From: an uncultured Bacilli bacterium
GTDB lineage: Bacteria; Bacillota_I; Bacilli_A; RF39; UBA660
Reading direction: 5' to 3'
Assembly: GCA_934090795.1 (NCBI GenBank)
Contig: CAKOJQ010000001.1
Location: forward strand, 90,842-122,841
Length of the DNA: 32,000 nucleotides
A program made the translations under genes and the position numbers. Positions 10,393-30,843 of this stretch are shown here, one piece after another. Within the stretch, counting starts at the first letter, position 1, and each line of letters begins with the position of its first letter. The notes under the pieces were generated by a model, which ran no database searches, was not told where the DNA came from, and was given only the letters and a program-made list of their open reading frames with translations.

Positions 10393-10414
10393 AAGTGGGA
10401 TATAAAGCCCACTT
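10393..10414 (-). terminator. Rho-independent terminator downstream of yafQ and upstream of rimP
   Basis: In minus sense AAGTGGG-CTTTATAT-CCCACTT is followed by TTATTAATATTT. The rimP SD (AGGAGG) comes next. Confidence 0.5.
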
Positions 10415-10520
10415 AAATCTGTAACAACTATATTTTAACACTTATTTACTTATATTGTAAAGGAAAAGTTTTTTACAACATCTATCTCAATTCTCAAAAA
10501 TAAGGTTTTATATTTCCTTA

Positions 10521-10814
10521 TCATTTGAAAATCTCACTATGACTACCCGTTGCTACTAACAAAAGGTTAAGTCTATTATCTTCATATTGATAAACTAATA
10601 GCCAATCTGGTTCTATATGACACTCTCTACAATTCATATAATATTTATCGTTTATTAATTTATGGTCTTTATATTTCGGCTCTAATTCTTCCCGTTTTGC
10701 CAATTTATCAATTACATAATCTATTTTATCTAAGTCTTTTCCTTGTTTTGATACCTTTTTATATTGCTTTTTAAAGTTGCTTGATAAAACTAAAATGCAT
10801 TTTTCGCTAGTCAT
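10521..10814 (-). CDS. yafQ: Type II toxin, YafQ/RelE family mRNA interferase
   Basis: KYKDHKLINDKYYMNCRECHIEPDWLLVYQYEDNRLNLLLVATGSHSEIF matches the YafQ pattern (KDH.L......R.CH..PDWLL.Y......L...RTGSHS.LF). It overlaps the antitoxin gene by 8 nt. Confidence 0.85.
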   Translation of the reverse strand: MTSEKCILVLSSNFKKQYKKVSKQGKDLDKIDYVIDKLAKREELEPKYKDHKLINDKYYMNCRECHIEPDWLLVYQYEDNRLNLLLVATGSHSEIFK

Positions 10815-11091
10815 TTATTAGAGCCTTTCTTAACGCTTTAACGTCTTTGTAACTTTCTAGTTCTACTTTACCATTTTTATAATCTTCTATTTCTTGTAAA
10901 GCTTCTAATAATTCTTTACTTGGTCTAGGATTAACCACCTCAAAAGGTACACCATCTTTATTAATTAATTGTTTTATTGCCATATTAACGTATGTACTCA
11001 TATTTAACCCTAAATTACTTAAAATACCAGTTGCTAGTTCTTTGTCTTTTCTATCTACTTGTACGCTTATAGCCGTTGTTAAACTTTCCAT
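10807..11091 (-). CDS. dinJ: Type II antitoxin, RelB/DinJ family
   Basis: ISVQVDRKDKELATGILSNLGLNMSTYVNMAIKQLINKDGVPFEV has a DinJ-like ribbon-helix-helix N-terminus. It lies immediately upstream of the toxin and overlaps it. Confidence 0.8.
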   Translation of the reverse strand: MESLTTAISVQVDRKDKELATGILSNLGLNMSTYVNMAIKQLINKDGVPFEVVNPRPSKELLEALQEIEDYKNGKVELESYKDVKALRKALIND

Positions 11092-11466
11092 AATAACACC
11101 TCTTTCATAATTAAAATAATATCATAGTTTATATAAAATATCAAGTTATTATATGTGTAATATATTATATTTTATATAAATCTAATATATATTATGTTTT
11201 GATAGCAAAAAAATATACATAAAAAGATAAGTAGTTAAATTATTTTGCTTGTCTTTATCTATATAAACACATTATATGGTGGTCTTATGTTTGTATCTTG
11301 GTATAAAGTTGTTAATATCTATATCTTATCTAATAAACTAAGAATCAAAAAATTAAAATATTAACGTAACATTAATATTAGAAAAAAATATTTATCAGAA
11401 CAAGACATAAAATATGGATAATATAAAAATCATAAAATAGTATTAAAAAATACGTTTTTAATTTGA

Positions 11467-12555
11467 CTAGTCGCAAGCGACAAATCTAAATTTTTCTAAA
11501 TATTTTATATTATTATAACAATTGCCTAAACTTAAATAAGCCTTAAAACATGTAATAGAACAATTTATATCATTAATGTTAATATTTTTATTAATCATTT
11601 TTCTTAACTTTCTTCTTTGTCTATATATAGTTTTTCTACTTGATATTAAATATATTTTTCCATTATTAAGTAATTTATAGTTCCATTTACAAAACATAAA
11701 TGAATTAGTAATAGAAATTATTTTAGTTTTATTTAAATTAATTTTTATATGTAATTTATCAGCAATAATTTTATAATTATTCAAAACATTTAAAGCCTCA
11801 TCATAAGTTATACAAAATAAGATACTATCATCCATGTAACGAATTATGGGAACATTTTTATTAATAATAAATTTATCTAGTTCATTAGGATACATTAATG
11901 CTTCTCTTTGAGCTATTTCAATACCAAGTCCTAAACCATCACCTATAAATAAATAATCTTCAATAATTTTTATTGTATTTTGATTTTTGATATATTTATT
12001 GTGAATCTCATGAATTACATCATGATTACAACTTTCAAAAAATTTACTATAATCTATTATCACTACATAACCATTTAAACCATATTTATTAAACCATTTT
12101 CTTAATATGGTTTTAACTCTTTTTATACTAAAACTAAATCCTTTATTTATTGTACTTGCACCATTATCATAAATTAATTTACTATCATATAACGGTATTA
12201 ATATCTCATTTGATATAACTTTATGTATTAATCGATCTTTAATATGTGGTGCATCAATGTTTCTTTCTTTTCCTCTTTCATTAATTTTAAACTTATATGT
12301 TTTATTAACAGTATAAGTATTATTTTTTATATTAGTACAAGTACTACCAACAATTGAAAACATATGTAATTTAAAATTTATAGTAGACTTTTTATATCCT
12401 ACATTTCTAGTACATTTTTTAGCATAATTATATACCTTATTAAAGGTAAAACATTTATTAACATCATCATAATTATTACTATTGATAATTAATTTATCTT
12501 CTCTTTTCTCTTTTCTTCTTTGATATCTTAATTCTTTTCTTTCTAAACTATTCAT
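11467..12555 (-). CDS. DGR-type reverse transcriptase
   Basis: 362 aa with RT motifs in order: IDAPHIKDRLIHKVI, VVIIDYSKFFESCNHD, GLGLGIEIAQREALMYPNELD, IIRYMDDSILFC (YMDD catalytic box) and LHIKINLNKTKI. It sits 257 nt downstream of the TR on the same strand. SD AAAGGA lies 5 nt before the ATG. Confidence 0.9.
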   Translation of the reverse strand: MNSLERKELRYQRRKEKREDKLIINSNNYDDVNKCFTFNKVYNYAKKCTRNVGYKKSTINFKLHMFSIVGSTCTNIKNNTYTVNKTYKFKINERGKERNIDAPHIKDRLIHKVISNEILIPLYDSKLIYDNGASTINKGFSFSIKRVKTILRKWFNKYGLNGYVVIIDYSKFFESCNHDVIHEIHNKYIKNQNTIKIIEDYLFIGDGLGLGIEIAQREALMYPNELDKFIINKNVPIIRYMDDSILFCITYDEALNVLNNYKIIADKLHIKINLNKTKIISITNSFMFCKWNYKLLNNGKIYLISSRKTIYRQRRKLRKMINKNININDINCSITCFKAYLSLGNCYNNIKYLEKFRFVACD

Positions 12556-12567
12556 TTAATTCCTTTC

Positions 12568-12593
12568 AAAAAAAATCTGATGTACTACATCAG
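12568..12593 (-). terminator. Terminator-like hairpin plus U8 tract just upstream of the RT start
   Basis: In minus sense CTGATGTAGTACATCAG (arms CTGATGT/ACATCAG) is followed by A then TTTTTTTT, then GAAAGGAATTAA-ATG of the RT. Confidence 0.45.
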
Positions 12594-12743
12594 GTAAATA
12601 TTTACAATAGATGAAAAATAAGTAGTCATATATACATCCATGTAATTTATTAAATATTTAAATATAAACCATGCAAGAAGCGTCCGGATGCTATAACCAT
12701 CAGATAAATTTAGAAGTATGATACTTCAAGGATAAACTAATCC

Positions 12744-12760
12744 TTTCCTATTTCAAAAGT
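12744..12760 (-). repeat. 17-nt direct repeat flanking the TR, RT-proximal copy
   Basis: TTTCCTATTTCAAAAGT on the plus strand, identical to 12983-12999. It lies 52 nt from the TR edge. Confidence 0.7.
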
Positions 12761-12812
12761 AGCACTAAAGAGTTAATTAAAACATCTTCCCATCACTTGT
12801 TCCACTAAAAGA

Positions 12813-12928
12813 GGAAATCTGGCGCGAAACCATTGTTGTTATTAGCATTATTATTGTTGACGTTACCGTTGTTATTCACATTTAAGAAATTATTGTTATT
12901 ATTGGAATTAGCCGCGCGAAGCCACCAC
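12813..12928 (-). repeat. DGR template repeat (TR)
   Basis: In sense (minus) orientation: TGGTGGCTTCGCGCGGCT AAT TCC AAT AAT AAC AAT AAT TTC TTA AAT GTG AAT AAC AAC GGT AAC GTC AAC AAT AAT AAT GCT AAT AAC AAC AAT GGTTTCGCGCCAGATTTCC. It has 19 AAY codons, is non-coding, and aligns without gaps to 14286-14401 (offset 1473). Confidence 0.93.
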
Positions 12929-12982
12929 GAAAATAAAAACATTAATAACTAAAACTAAGGCTTACTCGTAATATACATTAGT

Positions 12983-12999
12983 TTTCCTATTTCAAAAGT
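12983..12999 (-). repeat. 17-nt direct repeat flanking the TR, accessory-gene-proximal copy
   Basis: TTTCCTATTTCAAAAGT on the plus strand, identical to 12744-12760. It lies 54 nt from the TR edge and covers the last codons and the TGA stop of the 12992-13540 ORF. Confidence 0.7.
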
Positions 13000-13540
13000 T
13001 TTCAAAAATTATTTTTTTGACAAACTTAGAAACCAATAAATCAATTATTTGATCATCATCTATATCTTTATCATTTATTTTCTTTAATTTTTTATTATCA
13101 CTTTCTAAAACCCCTTTTAATAATTTATATTGTTTATCATAAAGACTACCCAATATTTCTAATCTCTTATCAAGCATTTCTCTAGCTTCTGTTGTTGTAT
13201 ATGATTTACCATTTTTTCTCCCAAAACAATTTTTAGGATTGGTATATAACACCTCTACCATATCAGTTAATTTTTTATTTAATATATCTAAACAACTTTT
13301 AGATAGTAAAATAAACACTCTTCTAAGTAATATATCTTCATATCTTGTTGGATTAATACTATTAGCCATAGATACTAACTCAGCTTGTTTACACACATAC
13401 TTTTCGATCGGTATTATATAAATATTAGTCCATTTTTTATTTAGTTTAGAAGATAATCTTAATGTTTCAACTTGAATTACATAAGCATTATCCACATATT
13501 CTAAACCATTTGGCTTTCTTTTGAATTTGGGAATTGACAT
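12992..13540 (-). CDS. DGR accessory protein 1 (occupies the Avd position; basic, probably helical; family unverified)
   Basis: 182-aa ORF between the target gene and the TR, Lys-rich. It aligns without gaps over at least 56 aa to the adjacent ORF (NIYxIP...Y..K...YEDI...LS..CL..L..K..DM). Confidence 0.6.
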   Translation of the reverse strand: MSIPKFKRKPNGLEYVDNAYVIQVETLRLSSKLNKKWTNIYIIPIEKYVCKQAELVSMANSINPTRYEDILLRRVFILLSKSCLDILNKKLTDMVEVLYTNPKNCFGRKNGKSYTTTEAREMLDKRLEILGSLYDKQYKLLKGVLESDNKKLKKINDKDIDDDQIIDLLVSKFVKKIIFENF

Positions 13541-13555
13541 AAAACTTACTCTTTT

Positions 13556-14098
13556 CTAAAACAAAATTTTGATTACTTCTTCACTATAAATATTTAATAT
13601 ATTAGTAATATTAATTTTTTTATTTTTATATCTTAATAATATAAGTTCATTAATTCTTATTAATATATTAATATTTTTAAATATTCTTTTATATAAAGAA
13701 TTAACATAATTATATTTATCTATTAATTCTTTATTATATTTTTTAATATAATTTATTTTTTTATATTTTCTTTTACGACTTATACTTTCATAGTTATCAT
13801 ATATTCTATTAAATTGTAAATCGTACATATCTAAAAATTTATAATATAAAACTTTTAGATAACATCTTGATAGTTTTATCAAAAAATTACAAAATATTAT
13901 ATCTTCATAATTTTTTATTTTATAATTAATTAAATATTTAAATATATTATATTCTTTTACTAAATAATTACTTACAGGTATTTGATAAATGTTTGATTTA
14001 TTTATTTTTAATTTAGATACCAAAAATAACATTTCGCATTTTATATTAAAACTATCTTTATAAACATTTTTTATTAATTTATTATATTTATCTTTCAT
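13556..14098 (-). CDS. DGR accessory protein 2 (divergent tandem paralog of accessory protein 1)
   Basis: 180-aa ORF that stays open through extremely AT-rich DNA, where stops should be frequent. It shares the NIYQIP, YEDI, LSRCYL and FLDM blocks with the 12992-13540 product. I see no obvious SD. Confidence 0.5.
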   Translation of the reverse strand: MKDKYNKLIKNVYKDSFNIKCEMLFLVSKLKINKSNIYQIPVSNYLVKEYNIFKYLINYKIKNYEDIIFCNFLIKLSRCYLKVLYYKFLDMYDLQFNRIYDNYESISRKRKYKKINYIKKYNKELIDKYNYVNSLYKRIFKNINILIRINELILLRYKNKKINITNILNIYSEEVIKILF

Positions 14099-14111
14099 AA
14101 TATTTTATGCA

Positions 14112-14143
14112 CCCATCTGATTTCCTTACGTCAATCAGATGGG
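14112..14143 (-). other. Perfect 11-bp stem-loop just upstream of accessory ORF 2
   Basis: CCCATCTGATT-(10 nt)-AATCAGATGGG. On the plus strand it is followed by a T-rich run. In minus sense it ends 13 nt before the ATG at 14098. Confidence 0.5.
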
Positions 14144-14168
14144 ATTTTATTTTTTTAGTTTATTTTAC

Positions 14169-14209
14169 GGGCCACCTTTTTTACTCACTGTCGTTCGCGG
14201 AGGTGGCCC
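14169..14209 (-). other. GC-rich stem-loop downstream of the VR and target-gene stop
   Basis: GGGCCACCT-(23 nt)-AGGTGGCCC, a 9-bp stem with 7 G-C pairs in otherwise AT-rich DNA. It lies 66 nt past the stop codon and 77 nt past the VR edge. Confidence 0.5.
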
Positions 14210-14274
14210 TTAGGAACCGATATTCCTATCTTTATTTTTATCTATATATTATGCTTTACATATAATTTACATTT

Positions 14275-15681
14275 TTATCCGATGCGGAAAGCTGGCGCGA
14301 AACCAATGTTGCTATAAGCAGAACGATGGGTGACGTTACCGGCGTCACTCACACTAAAGAAAGTAGAGCCACTAGTGGAATAAGCCGCGCGAAGCCACCA
14401 CCAACTGCCGGAACTTGATGTTAGTGTTTTCTTTATGGCTGCAGTATAACTATTTGTTGTTACTTCTTGGTCTTTATAATAATCTAATTGTCTTGTATTA
14501 TTATAAGCTGTATCTCTTGCAGATAATGATGTCGTTGATGGTGATGCATCTTCCCATACTTCATGTCCACTTAATAAATATATTTTATCGGTTGATGTGA
14601 AGTTTGTTTCTCCACTGGTACTTCCATGGCCTGATACTACATTTGTTTTTATTATTACATCTTGTAAATCACTTGGTAATTTCTTTAAGAAATCACCATT
14701 GGCATAAGTTCTCATTGCACTTGCTGGCCATCCATCTACATTCCATCCGTAATTATATTGTGTTCCTTTATACTCTCCTGATGGATTCATGTTTCTATTT
14801 TCTACTATATCTACAAACTCAACAACAAATCCACAAGCCGTCTGGGAAAAGTTTAAGTCATTACATTCTTTTGGTGTTGTGTTATTGGCAACGCGCACTG
14901 TATAATTTTTTCCACCTATTTCTACTTCTTTTTCTGACCCTACTGGATATGCTTCAAGTTGTCCATCTTGTACTACTGCTGCTATTGTTTCCCATGAATC
15001 TGCTGCAAATGTTGTTGGTGTTGGTGGTTCATAATTTACAACTATCTTTCCATTTATAGTAGCACCTTTTTCACTATCTTGATTTAATCCTGTATCAGGA
15101 AATTGAATTATTAAATTAAATTCAATACTTTGTTCATTTTGATTTGCTTTAAATTCTCCAGTAACCATTTCTGTATATTTATTTCCTTTTTTTAATGTTC
15201 CATGAGTATATCCTGTATAAGTATCATTTCCTGGTATTGTTTGATTTAAATAATCTTTTTTTGTTTTACCATCTTCTGGTGTTACTACATAGTTTGCCGT
15301 TACATTTTCATTTGTTGTTGTTCTTTTTATATAGTAATGTATTTGTCCATCACTAAATGTTGATTTATATTTTAGTCCTACTTTATACGGCATCACTAAT
15401 CCATCGCCTGCAGCCATTCCTGTTGCTGTGTTTGTTCCTGTTAATGAGAATGTTTTATTAACAAGAATTTTATCACTTGGTTGAATATTTGTTACAGGTA
15501 ATATATTATCTGTTCCATCATTATAAGTTATTAACATCTTTCCTGTATCAATTGTTGCTTGGGCTGTTGATCCTTGATTGTTAAATGCACTAAAGTATGC
15601 AAATGTGATGCCACCAAAAACAAGTAATATACTTACAATTGTAATAATTATAACCATCGTGACTAATTTGTTTTCTTTCAT
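14275..15681 (-). CDS. DGR target: secreted or surface protein with a SipW/TasA-type signal peptide and a C-terminal WWLR...GFxPxF variable ligand-binding domain (DUF6273-like / C-type-lectin-like)
   Basis: I prefer the ATG at 15681 (MKENKLVTMVIIITIVSILLVFGGITFAYFSA...) because GAGGAAGG lies 9 nt upstream. The track start at 15747 is a TTG that reads through the promoter poly-G. The C-terminus is ...KIYLLSGHEVW...SWWWLRAAYSTSGSTFFSVSDAGNVTHRSAYSNIGFAPAFRIG. The VR covers the last 39 or so codons. Confidence 0.85.
   Translation of the reverse strand: MKENKLVTMVIIITIVSILLVFGGITFAYFSAFNNQGSTAQATIDTGKMLITYNDGTDNILPVTNIQPSDKILVNKTFSLTGTNTATGMAAGDGLVMPYKVGLKYKSTFSDGQIHYYIKRTTTNENVTANYVVTPEDGKTKKDYLNQTIPGNDTYTGYTHGTLKKGNKYTEMVTGEFKANQNEQSIEFNLIIQFPDTGLNQDSEKGATINGKIVVNYEPPTPTTFAADSWETIAAVVQDGQLEAYPVGSEKEVEIGGKNYTVRVANNTTPKECNDLNFSQTACGFVVEFVDIVENRNMNPSGEYKGTQYNYGWNVDGWPASAMRTYANGDFLKKLPSDLQDVIIKTNVVSGHGSTSGETNFTSTDKIYLLSGHEVWEDASPSTTSLSARDTAYNNTRQLDYYKDQEVTTNSYTAAIKKTLTSSSGSWWWLRAAYSTSGSTFFSVSDAGNVTHRSAYSNIGFAPAFRIG
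14286..14401 (-). repeat. DGR variable repeat (VR)
   Basis: Gapless 116-nt alignment to the TR gives 92 identities and 24 mismatches. All mismatches are at plus-strand T in the TR, which is A in the sense strand. 24 of 41 TR adenines are substituted and 0 of 75 other positions. Both ends are identical GC-rich anchors (TGGTGGCTTCGCGCGGCT and GGTTTCGCGCCAG). Confidence 0.93.
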
Positions 15682-15709
15682 ATTTTTCATCCTTCCTCTA
15701 CTATAGAAA

Positions 15710-15740
15710 ATTATACTATTAAAACACCCCCCCCAGTCAA
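15710..15740 (-). promoter_or_regulatory. Sigma-A-type promoter of the DGR target gene with a G8 tract in the spacer
   Basis: In minus sense: TTGACT-GGGGGGGGTGTTTTAATAG-TATAAT, a 19-nt spacer. The -35 is at 15735-15740, the G8 tract at 15727-15734, and the -10 at 15710-15715. Confidence 0.65.
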
Positions 15741-15952
15741 TATTCAATTTTTTTGAATTTATATTTATCTTTGATAATTATAAATTCAAAAAATAAAATA
15801 TATAAAAAATAGAAAGTTTGTGCAAAATGATTTGCATAACTTTTTTTAATTGTGTAAAATAATTTGCAAATTATCGAAAGAATATTAAGACAAAATAAAA
15901 GAAGAGATCCATCATTTGCAAAGCCTTTTCTCTTCCTTCAAAATATTAATAT

Positions 15953-15977
15953 AAAAAAAGGCACATAAGTACCTTTT
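15953..15977 (-). terminator. Probable rho-independent terminator after the acyltransferase pseudogene
   Basis: In minus sense AAAAGGTAC-TTAT-GTGCCTTTT (one mismatch in the stem) is followed by a T run. Confidence 0.45.
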
Positions 15978-16010
15978 AATAAATCAATTAATAATATAAA
16001 ATTAAATTAA

Positions 16011-17173
16011 CTATTTTTCTTTTTTAAAATTAAGTTTTGGAGTAATGTAGTTATCCATAATAAGCATTAATAAAATAGATAATAGAATTGTAATTACATA
16101 TGTTAATATATAAATTGTATGTAATCCTTTTACTGTTGTATTGTTAATATTACAAACTTTTTGAAGAACACCAATTATTGGATAATGTAACATATAAATA
16201 TAAAGTGCTAACTTACCAGGATATTTCCAAATAGGTTTATTTAATAAAGATGTTAAATAATCTTTGTTTAATAAAACTAAGAAAACAATAATTAAACATA
16301 AACCATTAATAGTTGCAAATGTGAATGTTGCACCCCAAATCATATGATAAATAACAATACATGTACATACAGCATTTACAATAGTTAAAAGAATTTTACC
16401 TAATTTACTAAACTCTTTATTACTAATTTTTTCAATAAGTTCATAAAGAACACATCCTAAACCAATTGTAAAGAATGCTTGAATAGCAGCTTCGCTAATA
16501 CCGGTAATGGGAAATTATACCACATTGGACTAATACCGTTAACATGGAAATATCCATATACAATTATAAATCCAACTGGGAATATTAAACCTACTATTAA
16601 ATCTTCACATTTTTCTAATAAATAGTAAATTACATAACTAACTACTAATAAGCTTGAGATAAACCAAAGAGGTCCATTCATTAACATGTGTCTTCCTGCT
16701 GACATTAAACCATAAGTATTATTACCAATACCTAAGCCAGTAACAACACATCCTAGCCATTCCCATAAACAATCAATAGCAATTCTTGGCCATTCATTAA
16801 TTGGAAATCCATTATAAATGTTAGTTAGTACAAAACCAAATAATAGACAAATTAAGAATGCAGGATATAAACCTTTTAATCTTCTTAAAAGATATTTTCC
16901 AGCTCCTTCTCTAGGTGCTAATTCAGATTTACTTTCTTTCCTTTCTAATTTACTCTTTTTAAATTTTATCATTAAGAAATATCCTGTAATTAAATAGAAA
17001 ATAATAATTACATCAAGACTTCCTTTGAACATTACACCACCAGTAGGCACTCCATTTTTTGTAATTAACCATGGACTAGTATGTCAATACATCATTGGAT
17101 AAATGATATAAACATGAACTAGAATGAAGATCATACAAGAAACAAAACGCCAAAATTCAACAGCATAATTCAT
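16011..17173 (-). pseudogene. Acyltransferase family 3 (O-acyltransferase) gene disrupted by one in-frame TGA and one frameshift
   Basis: From the ATG at 17173 the frame reads MNYAVEFWRFVSCMIFILVHVYIIYPMMY-TGA-HTSPWLITKNGVPTGGVMFKG... The frame is lost near 16505-16515 and continues in another frame as ITGISEAAIQAFFTIGLGCVLYELIEK...YHMIWGATFTF... to the stop at 16011. The product is hydrophobic and multi-pass throughout. Confidence 0.7.
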
Positions 17174-26028: not shown

Positions 26029-27048
26029 TTATCTATCTTTTGATTTATATAAAACTTTTACATTTATTAAAATTAATACAAATGAGATTAACAATGGTAA
26101 GTAAAAGATAAATAAACGGTTTAAAATCATTCCATGAATCGCTAATGTATCAAAGATAGTTAAATATAATATGCTAGTAATATATTCGCTTATTCCTGTT
26201 TGACCGGGAAGTATACATAATTCTAAAGATATTTGAACAAATAATTGAAGTAATAAAATATCAAAATAATTAAGAACTATATTTGTATTTAAACTTCTAT
26301 AAATAAAATATATTATCGAAAACAATATTGTTCTTTGAATAAATACCAAGATAGTTGTTAGAAATAATATACCAACATTTTCTTTTAAATAGCTTGCTTC
26401 ATCTATGTATGATTTTGTTATTTCATCTATTTTAGTATTATAATCTATATTTTTATTTGTAAATTTATTATATATTTTATAAATAATTGTAAGTATTTTA
26501 CTAATTAATTTTTGATTATACATTAGAAGTAAACAAATAACTACTATAAAAATATCGTAAATAAATCCAAGAAAGAATAATATCTTAACTAAAGAACCAT
26601 TAGTAAAAACATAATCTGGTTTGAAAATTAAAATTAATATTCCTCCAACAATTAAAAATAATTTAAATAATATTGTATTAAGTATTAATGAAATCATACT
26701 CTTTTTATTTGATAATTTATCTTGATTCATGTAATAAAGTTGAAGAGGTTGACCACCAGTAGAACCAGGTGTTATACCACTAAAGAAAAACTCAACTAAA
26801 GAATAATGAAAACATCTTATTAATGATATTTTTTCATTCATTGAATTAAACATTACTTTAAAATATAATCCTTCCAAGAAGAAATATAAAAATACTCCTA
26901 AAATTATTATTATATAGTAACTTATATTTATCATTTTTAAACACAGTAGTATATCAGATACTTTATAAGTTAAAAAAAGAATCGTAAAAGTAACTGTAAA
27001 TAATAAGATGAAAATAATTGATGATATTATAATTTTTTTATCTTTCAT
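26029..27048 (-). CDS. Flippase-like membrane protein (lysylphosphatidylglycerol-synthase TM-region family, UPF0104)
   Basis: Multi-pass membrane protein with FFSGITPGSTGGQPLQLYYM, typical of the LPG_synthase_TM family. Confidence 0.6.
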   Translation of the reverse strand: MKDKKIIISSIIFILLFTVTFTILFLTYKVSDILLCLKMINISYYIIIILGVFLYFFLEGLYFKVMFNSMNEKISLIRCFHYSLVEFFFSGITPGSTGGQPLQLYYMNQDKLSNKKSMISLILNTILFKLFLIVGGILILIFKPDYVFTNGSLVKILFFLGFIYDIFIVVICLLLMYNQKLISKILTIIYKIYNKFTNKNIDYNTKIDEITKSYIDEASYLKENVGILFLTTILVFIQRTILFSIIYFIYRSLNTNIVLNYFDILLLQLFVQISLELCILPGQTGISEYITSILYLTIFDTLAIHGMILNRLFIFYLPLLISFVLILINVKVLYKSKDR

Positions 27049-27106
27049 ACTAATCTATCCTCACTAATGTTAAGTATAGCATCTTAATTTAAGAAGATAA
27101 ATAGAA

Positions 27107-28828
27107 TTAACCTATTTTATAGGGATTTGTTTTTTCACCAGTTCCACTAGCTATCAAGATATCAGATTTCAAGAAAACGGTCGGCAGAACCACGGTGGAG
27201 TTACACGCGAAGTTACTATCAACAGCACCGTCCCAACGCACAACGAACACAATATTCGAGCGTCCAGAGAAAGTCGACAATGTCCAGTACCAGCTAGACT
27301 TTTGTAACCAATTGTCTAATTTACATTTTGTATTAGTATAATCATATTGTTCTTTTGCTTTATCATACACTACTCCAGCTCTTAAATTTTCTCTACATTC
27401 ACTATTTGTTGATGCATATCCATAATCACTGGCATATATTAGTCCAACCTTACCTGTCCAATCAGTAGGGCGGCTATTTTGATAGGTGATTATTCCTCTT
27501 TCTTTATTATATTGATCTAATAGAGGCAATCCATATGGTGGAGTAGTTGGGTTACTATAACTATTTCCGCCAATGTTCCATACACTTTCACTTATCATAT
27601 TTTGATAATTACTTTTTATAACGTTTGTATAATCAAATACTCCAGTTTGACGAAATACTGGTTTCGTAGTTGTTGAATCATAATATGAATTATACCAATT
27701 ATTCTTATTTGCAGTTAAAGCTGTATTTAAATAATCTCCGTTTAATTCCTTCATTAAATCTGCTTCTGTCCAATTATTAAATCCATAATTATCATTTCCT
27801 GTTGCATCCAATGAATAATTGCCTAAAGATTCATTTCTAACTAATTTAATCTTTCTTTCAATTTTACCAGTTGAATCTTTTACATTAAAAATTCCAACTA
27901 TTCTCCATAGTTCTCCTATGTTACCAAACTCAACGTAATTTCTAGGCTCAGCACCTGTATATCTTACATTCTTATCTACAGTTGGATCTATAAACATTCC
28001 GTGTATATTGTTATTATCTAACTCCTGCACTTTACTTACATATTCTACCGCATTTATTCCTTTACTTTCAAAATTAACAATTAACTTATTTGGAATATTA
28101 TCTAAATTTGATACATTAATATCCCATTTTCCAGTTGCATAATTGCAAGTAAAACTGACATTACTATCTTTTAACTCAGTATTATTTTTATAAGCTGTTG
28201 ATGTTGCTCGGTAAAAGCAAATTGATGGTAAGTCCTGCTTTTCTACTCCATCTACATATGCTACTATATCTATATCTTTATCTAAACTTACTACATCATT
28301 TATTTGATTTACTAGTTCTAAATCATTCCATATATATCCTGCATTTAAATTAAGTTTTATATAATAATCATTATTACTTTTATTATTTGTTAATATAGTT
28401 AAAGACTTAGTCTTGTTTGTATTAATAGTTCTACTTACTTCACTAGATTCATCTTCTTTAGTTACACTTATATCACTTGGTATATTATTACTTGTCTCTG
28501 TACAATTTTGATTATTACATAATTCATATGTAAATTCATATTTAACATCTATTTTATTTAAATTAGTTAATATTATATTAAATTGTTCTATCTTACCTGC
28601 TTGTAAATGTAATATTCTATCATTTGACGTGCCACTATTTGTTGTTATATTAAATGATAAATCATTAACCTTTATATTAGCTATCTTTTTATTTTGACTT
28701 GATGTAAACATCGATAATGAATAACCTAAAGTAAATATAAATAACATTAACACTCCAATTATAGTTAATATCTTTGCTTGTTTATCTTTTTTTATTAAAT
28801 TAAAAAAATTGATAAGTTTAGTTTTCAT
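27107..28828 (-). CDS. Secreted or surface protein, paralogous in architecture to the DGR target (N-terminal anchor/signal, C-terminal WxW...LPxVFL domain)
   Basis: 573 aa with SD AGGAG 9 nt before the ATG. It has an N-terminal hydrophobic segment, and the C-terminus is ...GLIYASDYGYAS...SSWYWTLSTFSGRSNIVFVVRWDGAVDSNFACNSTVVLPTVFLKSDILIASGTGEKTNPYKIG. Confidence 0.75.
   Translation of the reverse strand: MKTKLINFFNLIKKDKQAKILTIIGVLMLFIFTLGYSLSMFTSSQNKKIANIKVNDLSFNITTNSGTSNDRILHLQAGKIEQFNIILTNLNKIDVKYEFTYELCNNQNCTETSNNIPSDISVTKEDESSEVSRTINTNKTKSLTILTNNKSNNDYYIKLNLNAGYIWNDLELVNQINDVVSLDKDIDIVAYVDGVEKQDLPSICFYRATSTAYKNNTELKDSNVSFTCNYATGKWDINVSNLDNIPNKLIVNFESKGINAVEYVSKVQELDNNNIHGMFIDPTVDKNVRYTGAEPRNYVEFGNIGELWRIVGIFNVKDSTGKIERKIKLVRNESLGNYSLDATGNDNYGFNNWTEADLMKELNGDYLNTALTANKNNWYNSYYDSTTTKPVFRQTGVFDYTNVIKSNYQNMISESVWNIGGNSYSNPTTPPYGLPLLDQYNKERGIITYQNSRPTDWTGKVGLIYASDYGYASTNSECRENLRAGVVYDKAKEQYDYTNTKCKLDNWLQKSSWYWTLSTFSGRSNIVFVVRWDGAVDSNFACNSTVVLPTVFLKSDILIASGTGEKTNPYKIG
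27173..27292 (-). other. VR-like, GC-rich patch with no cognate TR in this window
   Basis: About 51% GC by hand count, against about 25% in the surroundings. It aligns residue-for-residue in length and scaffold positions with the TR-encoded peptide (S7, V16, G20, V22, A27, P35). 16 of 19 codons at the TR Asn positions are NNY. Confidence 0.4.
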
Positions 28829-28853
28829 ATTTTTGAACTCCTATTCTTATCAA

Positions 28854-28881
28854 ATTATATTACTAAATACCCCCCCGTCAA
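28854..28881 (-). promoter_or_regulatory. Sigma-A-type promoter of the 27107-28828 gene with a G7 tract in the spacer
   Basis: In minus sense: TTGACG-GGGGGGTATTTAGTAA-TATAAT, a 16-nt spacer. The C7 run on the plus strand is at 28870-28876. The layout is homologous to the promoter at 15710-15740. Confidence 0.65.
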
Positions 28882-28917
28882 GCGAAAAAACGTTTGTTTT
28901 AAATTTTCATATACTAT

Positions 28918-30843
28918 TTATCTTTTTGTTTCAATTATATAGTCATCTTCAAGAGAAAACTCTACATTTTCGTTAATCCAGTCTTTTCTTGGTTCTACTA
29001 CATCTCCCATTAAAACAGATACTCTCTTTTCAGCAAGTAAGGCATCAGTTATATTTACTTTAATTAAGTTTCTGTTTTCAGGATCCATTGTAGTTGTCCA
29101 AAGTGGTTCAGGGTTCATTTCACCTAAACCTTTATATCTTTGAACTTTATAATTTTGTTTTCCTTTAGTTGCTTCTTTTAATTCTTCATTTGTCCAACAA
29201 TAGACATGATTTTTACCATAATCAACCTTATAAAGAGGCGGCATAGCAATATATAAATGTCCTTCTTCAATAAGTGGTTTCATAAATCTATAGAAGAAAG
29301 TTAAAAGTAAACACTGAATATGAGCACCATCATCATCGGCATCGGTCATAATTATTACTTTATCATAATTAATATCTTTAACGTCAAAATCTTGTCCGTA
29401 ACCAGCACCAATACAGTTTATCATGGTACTTATTTCTTCATTTTTAAATATTTCAGGGCCACTTGTTTTTTCAGTATTAAGTATTTTTCCTCTTAATGGT
29501 AATATTGCTTGAAATTTACGATCTCTACTTTTTTTAGCAGTACCTCCGGCTGAATTTCCCTCTACAATAAATAATTCGTTTTTCTTAGGATTTCTTGTTT
29601 GAGCGGGAGTAAGTTTACCGGATAATCTTTGAGCTTCACTCTTTTTAGTTTTGCCATTTCTTGCTTCTTCTCTTGCTTTACGAGCTGCTTCTCTAGCAAC
29701 TTTACTTTTGCTCATTTTTTCAATTATTTTTAAAGCATTTTCTTTGTTCTCTTCTAAATAATATTTAATACTTTCATAAACAATTGATTCAACTACTGGT
29801 CTTGCTTCTGGAGTTCCTAGTTTTCCTTTAGTTTGTCCTTCAAATTGAAGAAGATTTTCTGGTATTTTTAAATTAATAACGGCAGTTAATCCTTCTCTAA
29901 CATCGCTTCCTTCAAAGTTAGCTGATTTGGCTTTTAATATACCATTTGATTTAGCATAATCATTAAAGGCTTTGGTAATACCAGTTTTAAAACCTACTTC
30001 ATGAGTTCCACCATCACTTGTTTTAACATTATTAACAAATGAGATAATATTTTCATTATAAGAATCAGTATATTGCATAGCGATATCTACTTCAATAGTA
30101 TTTTTAACACCATGAATAGGAATTACTTTATGTAATACTTCTTTATCTTCATTAATATAGTCTACAAATGAGATTAAACCATTATCATAATGGTATGTTA
30201 CTCTCTTATCATCTGGAATATCTTCGATATCAATAGTTAGTTCTTTAAGTAAGAAAGCACTTTCTTGCATTCTTTCACAAATAGTTGTGTAACTAAATGT
30301 TAAATTTTTAAAGATACTTTCCATTGGTTTAAATGTTACAATTGTTCCTGTTGCTTTTGTTGTACCAATTTTCTTTAAGGGACTTGCTACTTCACCACCA
30401 TTTTTAAATTTAATTTGATTTATTTCACCATCTCTTAAAATAGTTACTTCCATATAGTCAGACAAAGCATTAACAACAGATGCACCTACTCCATGTAAAC
30501 CACCAGATACCTTATATCCATCAGTTTCAAATTTACCACCAGCATGTAAAATAGTATAAATAACTTCAGGGGTTGATTTTCCACTTGAATGCATACCAGT
30601 TGGGACACCTCTACCATTATCAGCGATAGTTATAGAATTATCTTTATTGATCTTAATACTTATTTTGTTACCATAACCATTTATTATTTCATCAATTGAG
30701 TTATCTACTATTTCCCATACCAAATGATGAAGACCTCTTTTATCAGTAGATCCTATATACATACCTGGTCTTTTTCTTACAGCTTCTAATCCTTCTAATA
30801 TTTTAATTGAATGTTCATCGTATTTATGAGCCATCATATTCAC
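28918..30843 (-). CDS. parE: DNA topoisomerase IV subunit B (type IIA topoisomerase ATPase subunit)
   Basis: GHKL ATPase and TOPRIM motifs (LEGLEAVRKRPGMYIGST, EGNSAGG, IMTDADDDGAHI, YKGLGEMN). The C-terminal LAEKRVSVLMGDVVEPRKDWINENVEF resembles B. subtilis ParE (AERRV..LMGDKVEPRRKWIEENVAF) more than GyrB. The N-terminus does not discriminate between them. Confidence 0.75.
   Translation of the reverse strand: MNMMAHKYDEHSIKILEGLEAVRKRPGMYIGSTDKRGLHHLVWEIVDNSIDEIINGYGNKISIKINKDNSITIADNGRGVPTGMHSSGKSTPEVIYTILHAGGKFETDGYKVSGGLHGVGASVVNALSDYMEVTILRDGEINQIKFKNGGEVASPLKKIGTTKATGTIVTFKPMESIFKNLTFSYTTICERMQESAFLLKELTIDIEDIPDDKRVTYHYDNGLISFVDYINEDKEVLHKVIPIHGVKNTIEVDIAMQYTDSYNENIISFVNNVKTSDGGTHEVGFKTGITKAFNDYAKSNGILKAKSANFEGSDVREGLTAVINLKIPENLLQFEGQTKGKLGTPEARPVVESIVYESIKYYLEENKENALKIIEKMSKSKVAREAARKAREEARNGKTKKSEAQRLSGKLTPAQTRNPKKNELFIVEGNSAGGTAKKSRDRKFQAILPLRGKILNTEKTSGPEIFKNEEISTMINCIGAGYGQDFDVKDINYDKVIIMTDADDDGAHIQCLLLTFFYRFMKPLIEEGHLYIAMPPLYKVDYGKNHVYCWTNEELKEATKGKQNYKVQRYKGLGEMNPEPLWTTTMDPENRNLIKVNITDALLAEKRVSVLMGDVVEPRKDWINENVEFSLEDDYIIETKR

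Follow-up and report, generated by a model that had tools for sequence, protein, structure and literature searches.

Repeat-driven promoter switching of surface-protein families is textbook knowledge for small-genome pathogens such as Mycoplasma, Treponema, Neisseria and Campylobacter. In walled, spore-forming gut commensals, the phase variation that is known mostly relies on invertible promoters, and to our knowledge promoter switching driven by repeats is hardly documented there. Among the described systems, insertions and deletions in the promoter spacer switch the Mycoplasma genes vlp, maa2 and vmm (PMC2268961), and a poly-G tract between the -35 and -10 boxes controls tp0126 of T. pallidum and porA of N. 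meningitidis, 17 nt being the optimal spacing (PMC7864442). A homopolymer beside a promoter can also be functionally silent, as is the case for the T-tract of M. agalactiae vpma (PMC2268961).

In architecture, vlp of Mycoplasma hyorhinis (with M. arthritidis maa2 and M. mycoides vmm) comes closest to the locus analyzed here. It is a surface multigene family in which the divergent or mosaic mature regions are each preceded by the gene's own copy of a highly conserved promoter and signal-sequence cassette. Similarly, a simple repeat is located in the -35/-10 spacer, where slippage switches the genes independently (PMC2268961), a switching that is only proposed for the present family. With vlp, a poly(A) tract of about 17-20 nt serves the lipoprotein genes of a wall-less, MMR-poor mollicute, whereas the present family combines a short, strongly modal G7 tract with signal-anchored proteins in walled, spore-forming Bacilli. 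The tp0126/tpr genes of T. pallidum likewise encode paralogous surface proteins and have poly-G promoter tracts, of about 7-12 nt; in tp0126 the tract lies between -35 and -10, as here, and tract lengths in T. pallidum vary within and between isolates (PMC7864442). This organism, however, is a high-GC spirochaete, and the tract of tprE/G/J/L is situated just upstream of the transcription start. In addition, tract variability and reporter effects have been measured in T. pallidum. The present family is far larger and has a far more uniform cassette. In N. meningitidis, porA (poly-G in the spacer) and opc (poly-C at the -35 box) exemplify a spacing-based 'volume control' by G/C homopolymers (PMC7864442), but both are single genes outside any cassette-bearing family, with tracts of 9-14 nt that are highly variable among strains.

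The window, i.e., the whole 32-kb stretch of DNA that was analyzed (25.5% G+C), provides the coordinates used throughout. Upstream of gene 27107-28828 the minus strand reads TTGACGGGGGGGTATTTAGTAATATAAT from 28881 to 28854, bearing out the TTGACG hexamer, G7 tract, 16-nt spacer and TATAAT hexamer of the preliminary description. The site is composed of the following elements:

28882-28905 (bounds approximate), minus strand: conserved upstream part of the cassette, with consensus AAAATAGAACAnnTTTTCGC and window copy AAAACAAACGTTTTTTCGC
28881-28876, minus strand: -35 hexamer TTGACG, its last base being the first G of the tract
28876-28870, minus strand: G7 homopolymer (C7 on the plus strand), upstream part of the 16-nt spacer
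28875-28860, minus strand: 16-nt spacer
28859-28854, minus strand: -10 hexamer TATAAT
28829-28853, minus strand: conserved 5' leader TTGATAAGAATAGGAGTTCAAAAAT, containing the RBS AGGAG (28842-28838)
28828, minus strand: ATG of the 573-aa ORF
27107-28828, minus strand: 573-aa family protein, with a helical membrane anchor at the N-terminus, followed by two predicted beta-sandwich domains and a C-terminal domain of ~330 aa

A consensus promoter scan of 26900-29100 ranked 28881-28854 as the top sigma-70-like site with 11 of 12 matches. RBS and start codon follow at appropriate positions, and the uninterrupted simple-sequence repeat at 28876-28870 is thus placed within the predicted core promoter, between -35 and -10. 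Other devices were considered for this position. A riboswitch or leader structure over the tract was rejected, as no Rfam match lies there and the fold z-score is -0.5. The terminator-like hairpin at 28879-28896 is present on the plus strand only and its inverted repeat is not kept across the family, for which it is treated as incidental. No recombinase adjoining the 27107-28828 locus was found in the window, and phase variation by an invertible promoter or a recombinase was set aside, given that each family gene has a complete promoter cassette of its own, oriented toward the gene.

The G tract stands out against its sequence context. The preliminary description had counted only two G/C runs of 7 nt or longer in the 32-kb window, which is correct and even an understatement, since only two exist at 5 nt or longer: the C7 of this site and a C8 at 15727-15734. 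Mononucleotide shuffles gave a mean of 0.06 runs of at least 7 nt per window and a probability of 0.001 for two or more. In 616 kb of clade DNA (67 sequences, namely 66 loci and the window, at about 25% GC), 51 of the 53 G runs of at least 6 nt occur in the promoter context TTGAC-Gn-...-TATAAT upstream of family genes, and the remaining two both belong to the same tRNA gene. The wider scan for such promoters that had been proposed beforehand thus turned up no multitude of long G tracts unlinked to promoters. TTGAC is invariant in all 51 cassette copies; their tract is strongly modal, with 40 copies of G7 beside six of G8, four of G6 and one of G9.

This promoter is not confined to a single gene. 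When GTDB species representatives were scanned for relatives of the 573-aa protein, 22 loci were retrieved, nearly all from the Hadza-gut MAG CAKOIE01 ('uncultured Bacilli bacterium') and the remainder from two related MAGs. CAKOIE01 contains at least 18 paralogues. We put the family size at more than 20 paralogues per genome, with one promoter cassette common to all. All G runs of at least 6 nt in those loci sit in this one cassette, AAAATAGAACAnnTTTTCGC-TTGAC-G7-CTTTTAGTAA-TATAAT-TT, and the leaders and N-terminal coding sequences downstream of it fall into a small number of conserved types, e.g., MKTKLIKFFNLIKK... or M..K..GITYAFFT.... According to an alignment of 36 non-redundant cassettes, conservation begins about 25-28 nt upstream of TTGAC. 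Intermediate copies (L007 1858, L017 1871) join the family upstream box to a leader like that of the DGR target described below, which identifies the DGR-target promoter as a divergent copy of this cassette. The claim of a homologous promoter is thereby supported, as both sites in the window belong to one cassette family. The framing in terms of two genes holds insofar as the DGR-target gene has the same layout, but has to be widened to more than 20 paralogues per genome.

Orthologous loci were reached via homologues, ClpP and RpoD. Neither the 573-aa protein nor the GyrB/ParE-like protein encoded at window 28918-30843 had a match in exact-protein look-ups, and a scan of JGI metagenomes with the cassette pattern produced a single match (L027), the lineage being essentially absent from that collection. 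Literature searches on the family, on DUF6273 with phase variation and on DGR with homopolymer yielded no prior description of the family or the cassette. The genes neighboring the family in related contigs encode SpoIIP, SpoVIF, sortases, LytR-CpsA-Psr and PBPs, pointing to a walled spore-former.

Two further properties of the cassette were observed. Just upstream of the -35 box, the family consensus (L001-L022) contains a highly conserved box AATAGAAC-N4-TTTCG (AGAAC-N4-TTTCG), which is one mismatch away from the Firmicute LexA (Cheo) box GAAC-N4-GTTC and is degenerate in the window copy (AAAC-N4-TTTCG, in 28882-28905 of the minus strand); it may be a regulator site common to the whole family. 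In addition, family genes are often arranged in head-to-tail tandem arrays of two to three, each with its own cassette (L007 138-4941; L011 1867-5320; L004, L009, L015, L016), and tract states differ inside one array: L011 has two G7 tracts and one G5, and in L007 there are tracts that have decayed.

The encoded proteins form a mosaic family. The 573-aa protein has 752 homologues, and its conserved C-terminal domain of ~330 aa is weakly DUF6273-like: the protein itself has no Pfam match, and Pfam DUF6273 is matched by 11 of 31 aligned family members. In its AlphaFold model (pLDDT 70), the helical anchor at the N-terminus is followed by two beta-sandwich domains, and the C-terminal domain is of mixed type. 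A fold search of the PDB with this model returned weak matches only, to Ig/PapD-like domains and to the IgA peptidase of Thomasclavelia ramosa (TM 0.24), and a functional assignment on these grounds was dropped. The preliminary description had called the 573-aa gene a paralogue of the DGR target. Direct BLASTP between both proteins is not significant (E 0.05), but a modular link does exist: a family profile of residues 1-260 aligns with residues 4-223 of the DGR target at an hhalign probability of 99.8%, the profile having been built by region and without P0039 because the latter carries an extra DUF6273 domain. A bridging paralogue (L017 1919-3496) shares 54% identity with the DGR target in its first 214 residues (E 2e-73) and 71% with the 573-aa protein in its C-terminal 330 residues. 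The relationship thus stands at the level of modules, the two proteins of the window sharing only the N-terminal one. Based on the N-terminal hydrophobic anchor or SipW/camelysin-like signal, the modelled beta-sandwich stalks (pLDDT 70) and the kinship with the DUF6273-containing DGR target, the family members are predicted to be membrane-anchored and are probably surface-exposed, which makes 'surface protein' a reasonable, though putative, designation.

The genomic surroundings of family members vary. In some strains with identical RpoD, this position lacks both the 573-aa gene and its neighbor, the LPG_synthase_TM gene, and is occupied by a resolvase/Mob_Pre element or by HD-domain genes (compared: L061, L062, L066, L064 and L065). 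Two contigs of considerable length (79 and 88 kb) break off within the conserved 5' end of the 573-aa gene, indicating that the multi-copy cassette breaks assemblies. P0039 (L033-L035) is a family member of 790 aa with the extra DUF6273 domain at its C-terminus; its gene has sortase genes upstream and is followed downstream by a T2SSE-type ATPase and several small unannotated genes, the latter group being a candidate pilus or secretion cluster.

The second G tract of the window belongs to a DGR, with the following elements:

15740-15710, minus strand: diverged cassette copy, the DGR-target promoter, TTGACT-G8 (15734-15727)-TGTTTTAATAG-TATAAT with a 19-nt spacer
14275-15681, minus strand: DGR target gene, with a SipW/camelysin-like signal, the shared N-terminal module and a DUF6273 C-terminus (Pfam 5e-19) with the VR
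14286-14404, in the DGR target gene: variable repeat VR, matching the TR
12813-12931: template repeat TR, with mismatches to the VR almost only at TR adenines
12555-12755, minus strand: Rfam RT-2 RNA (RF03077, 52 bits), a DGR-associated non-coding RNA motif between the TR and the RT gene
11467-12555: reverse transcriptase, RVT_1 (Pfam)

The DGR is real and gene 14275-15681 is its bona fide target. This gene resembles DGR-diversified targets of the DUF6273/C-type-lectin-fold type in its DUF6273 domain and its adenine-specific TR/VR differences, whereas the 573-aa gene has no VR matching the TR. Indeed, a BLAST search of the window with the TR matches only the VR at 14286-14404 and nothing in 27107-28828, so that the 573-aa gene was rejected as a second DGR target. 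In the literature searched, no DGR target was described as having a homopolymer in its promoter, and a look-up of the RT gave short contigs only, none of which reaches the target promoter.

Between the DGR target and the TR lie two tandem ORFs of ~180 aa (12992-13540 and 13556-14098, minus strand) with no Pfam match. They sit where an Avd-type accessory protein is expected, and the accessory gene may be duplicated. Comparison with L045, L047, L060 and L064 places the DGR on a strain-variable island (~10400-17100) that contains a RelB/YafQ-like toxin-antitoxin pair (10521-11091), the RT, the Avd-like ORFs (12992-14098), the target and acyltransferase fragments (16011-17050). In several strains a 241-aa gene is directly followed by rimP with no island between, and other strains have a different upstream flank at the DGR-target promoter. 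Two in-frame ATG codons, at 15690 and 15681 of the minus strand, are available to the DGR target. There is no gap between the RBS GGAAGG and the first of them, so that translation more probably begins at the second (MKENKL...). On other contigs, the DGR target is called with a length of 468 aa.

The tract sets the spacing of the promoter boxes. In the common cassette the spacer measures 14 nt at G5, 15 at G6, 16 at G7, 17 at G8 and 18 at G9, while it amounts to 18 nt at G7 and 19 nt at G8 in the DGR-type cassette, resulting in a range of 14-19 nt across the family. From TTGAC to the end of the -10 box the distance is 28 nt here and 31 nt at the DGR target, in agreement with the 3 nt difference initially noted. 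Copies with a decayed tract (TAGGGAGGA, GGGGAAGAA, TCAGAAGG) have spacers of 17-18 nt, and tract-less homologues in another lineage carry TTGAAA-17-TGTATAAT. Relative to this non-repeat family spacing, G7 at the present site would be 1-2 nt short and G8 at the DGR target 1-2 nt long. With spacings off 17-18 nt, both window genes may be in a reduced state in the consensus. At the same time, promoter boxes this close to consensus may be fully active at a spacing of 16 nt, and a change of one nucleotide in either direction might only modulate expression.

Length variation was followed by comparing the same allele across samples via proteins that are identical in several samples, using consensus assemblies. 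The P0039 locus has G7 in three samples, G8 in L035 and G9 in L037; L033 and L037 show 0 mismatches over 2554 bp, two additional G residues being the sole difference. The P0106 locus has G7 in four samples and G6 in L029, and the P0109 locus has G6 in three samples. At the DGR-target promoter, G8 (window, L046, L065) coexists with G7 (L041, L043, L044). The site under study itself has G7 in all four independent assemblies (window, L023 = L060, L024 and L063), and no switching was seen there. Between strains that are otherwise nearly identical, tract length differs at three family loci, where G6, G8 and G9 occur against G7.

As a control, every homopolymer was scored in 208 kb of pairwise strain alignments. 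The G7 tracts underwent a pure length change in 3 of 13 cases and a substitution in none of the 13. Runs of A/T of 7-9 nt showed no pure length change (0/213) and were substituted in 47 of 213 cases (22%), and the shorter G/C runs of 5-6 nt likewise had no pure length change (0/22) with 5 of 22 substituted. The excess of length changes at G7 tracts is significant (Fisher p = 1.5e-4), so length polymorphism between strains exceeds that of comparable repeats for the family (range G5-G9), the present site excepted. A tract that is a length-mutation hotspot and at the same time protected from substitution has the signature expected of a selected mutable repeat. The tract also stays pure in a species at 63% protein identity with diverged flanks and TATGAT as -10 box (L025/L026). 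Against a mutable repeat speak the sharp G7 mode, which extends to that species, and the uniform G7 at the site under study. The G9 variant, covered about 5x, lies 9 nt inside a contig end, and the G6 variant has about 9x coverage; given low coverage in two of the three variants and the contig end in one, sequencing or assembly errors at G homopolymers are possible for individual cases. Classical contingency tracts are usually longer and more variable between strains.

In this study, we propose that the cassette functions as a contingency promoter, in which slippage of the G-run alters the -35/-10 spacing and hence promoter strength, independently for each paralogue; we assign this reading a probability of about 0.58. 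The predicted sigma-A (sigma-70-type) promoter is embedded in a conserved cassette in which an upstream box, TTGAC, the G-run, about 10 nt and TATAAT are followed by the leader and the signal-anchor codons, a cassette that precedes each member of a large mosaic family of predicted membrane-anchored proteins in an uncultured lineage of spore-forming gut Bacilli. The uninterrupted G-run, abutting the -35 box, sets the distance between both boxes, and G residues gained or lost by slipped-strand mispairing at replication would change promoter strength gene by gene. The outcome would be a stochastic, heritable and reversible variation in the set of expressed paralogues. The activity of the promoter, the effect of tract length on its output, a frequent and reversible switching and the identity of the ON length are inferred from sequence. 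The tract-less 17-18-nt spacers hint that G7 (16 nt) would be a low state here and G8 (19 nt) a low state at the DGR target. The switch would probably be of the on/off or volume-control kind.

The main rival to the contingency promoter considers the G-run to be a fixed cis-regulatory element of a paralogous surface-protein regulon, either an operator or activator site or a structural spacer by the -35 box, with its length under purifying selection and with G6, G8 and G9 as slightly deleterious polymorphisms or assembly errors. The exact G7 in 40 of 51 copies and across species with diverged flanks fits such an element, as does the lack of variation at the present site in four assemblies, and the conserved box AATAGAAC-N4-TTTCG upstream of -35 suggests a protein-binding site within the cassette. 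Yet, A/T runs as long as the G tract have far fewer length variants in these assemblies, and the spacing is not conserved (14-19 nt), DGR-type copies holding G7 in an 18-nt spacer. In addition, copies with decayed or absent tracts keep their promoter boxes at 17-18 nt, and these intact boxes imply that the tract is dispensable for promoter architecture. Overall, a fixed element is possible but rather unlikely.

A further explanation regards the tract as a functionless passenger, spread with the cassette by recent duplication and homogenized by gene conversion among paralogues. The cassette, including leader and signal-peptide codons, is indeed nearly identical among the paralogues of one genome, and contigs break inside it, as is typical of a multi-copy repeat. 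A neutral G7 should, however, decay at 25% GC, whereas the tract is free of substitutions, next to variable positions (C/T, T/G/A) and in contrast to A/T runs, 22% of which are interrupted; the retention of G7 at 63% protein identity between different flanks equally speaks against a passenger, and we deem it quite improbable. Chance or a poly-G sequencing artefact, conceivable as two-colour Illumina chemistry can yield spurious G runs, is effectively refuted by the shuffling statistics (P = 0.001 for two or more runs of at least 7 nt) and by the recurrence of the tract at the same position across independent projects and assemblers (Hadza metaSPAdes, MEGAHIT k141, MERR22, Logan, JGI).

With a contingency promoter as the preferred reading, the presence of the same device on the DGR target means that this gene could vary in both expression and sequence. 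A more far-reaching scenario is a Mycoplasma-like combinatorial surface variation, in which more than 20 mosaic genes would each be gated by poly-G and one would in addition be hypermutated by the DGR, giving three levels of diversification (module shuffling, promoter switching and retroelement mutagenesis); this scenario is tentative, and we lean slightly against it. The switch as such, a poly-repeat contingency promoter, would be of a known type, and its novelty would reside in the unusual host lineage and the link with a DGR; we know of no other DGR target with a putative slippage switch in its promoter. The TTGAC-G7 cassette offers a simple genome-wide marker for the family and, simultaneously, is a predictable source of contig breaks in these MAGs. 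If confirmed, the system would represent a clear case of a slippage switch in a non-industrial (Hadza) gut lineage, and two independent diversification mechanisms would be linked on one gene family.
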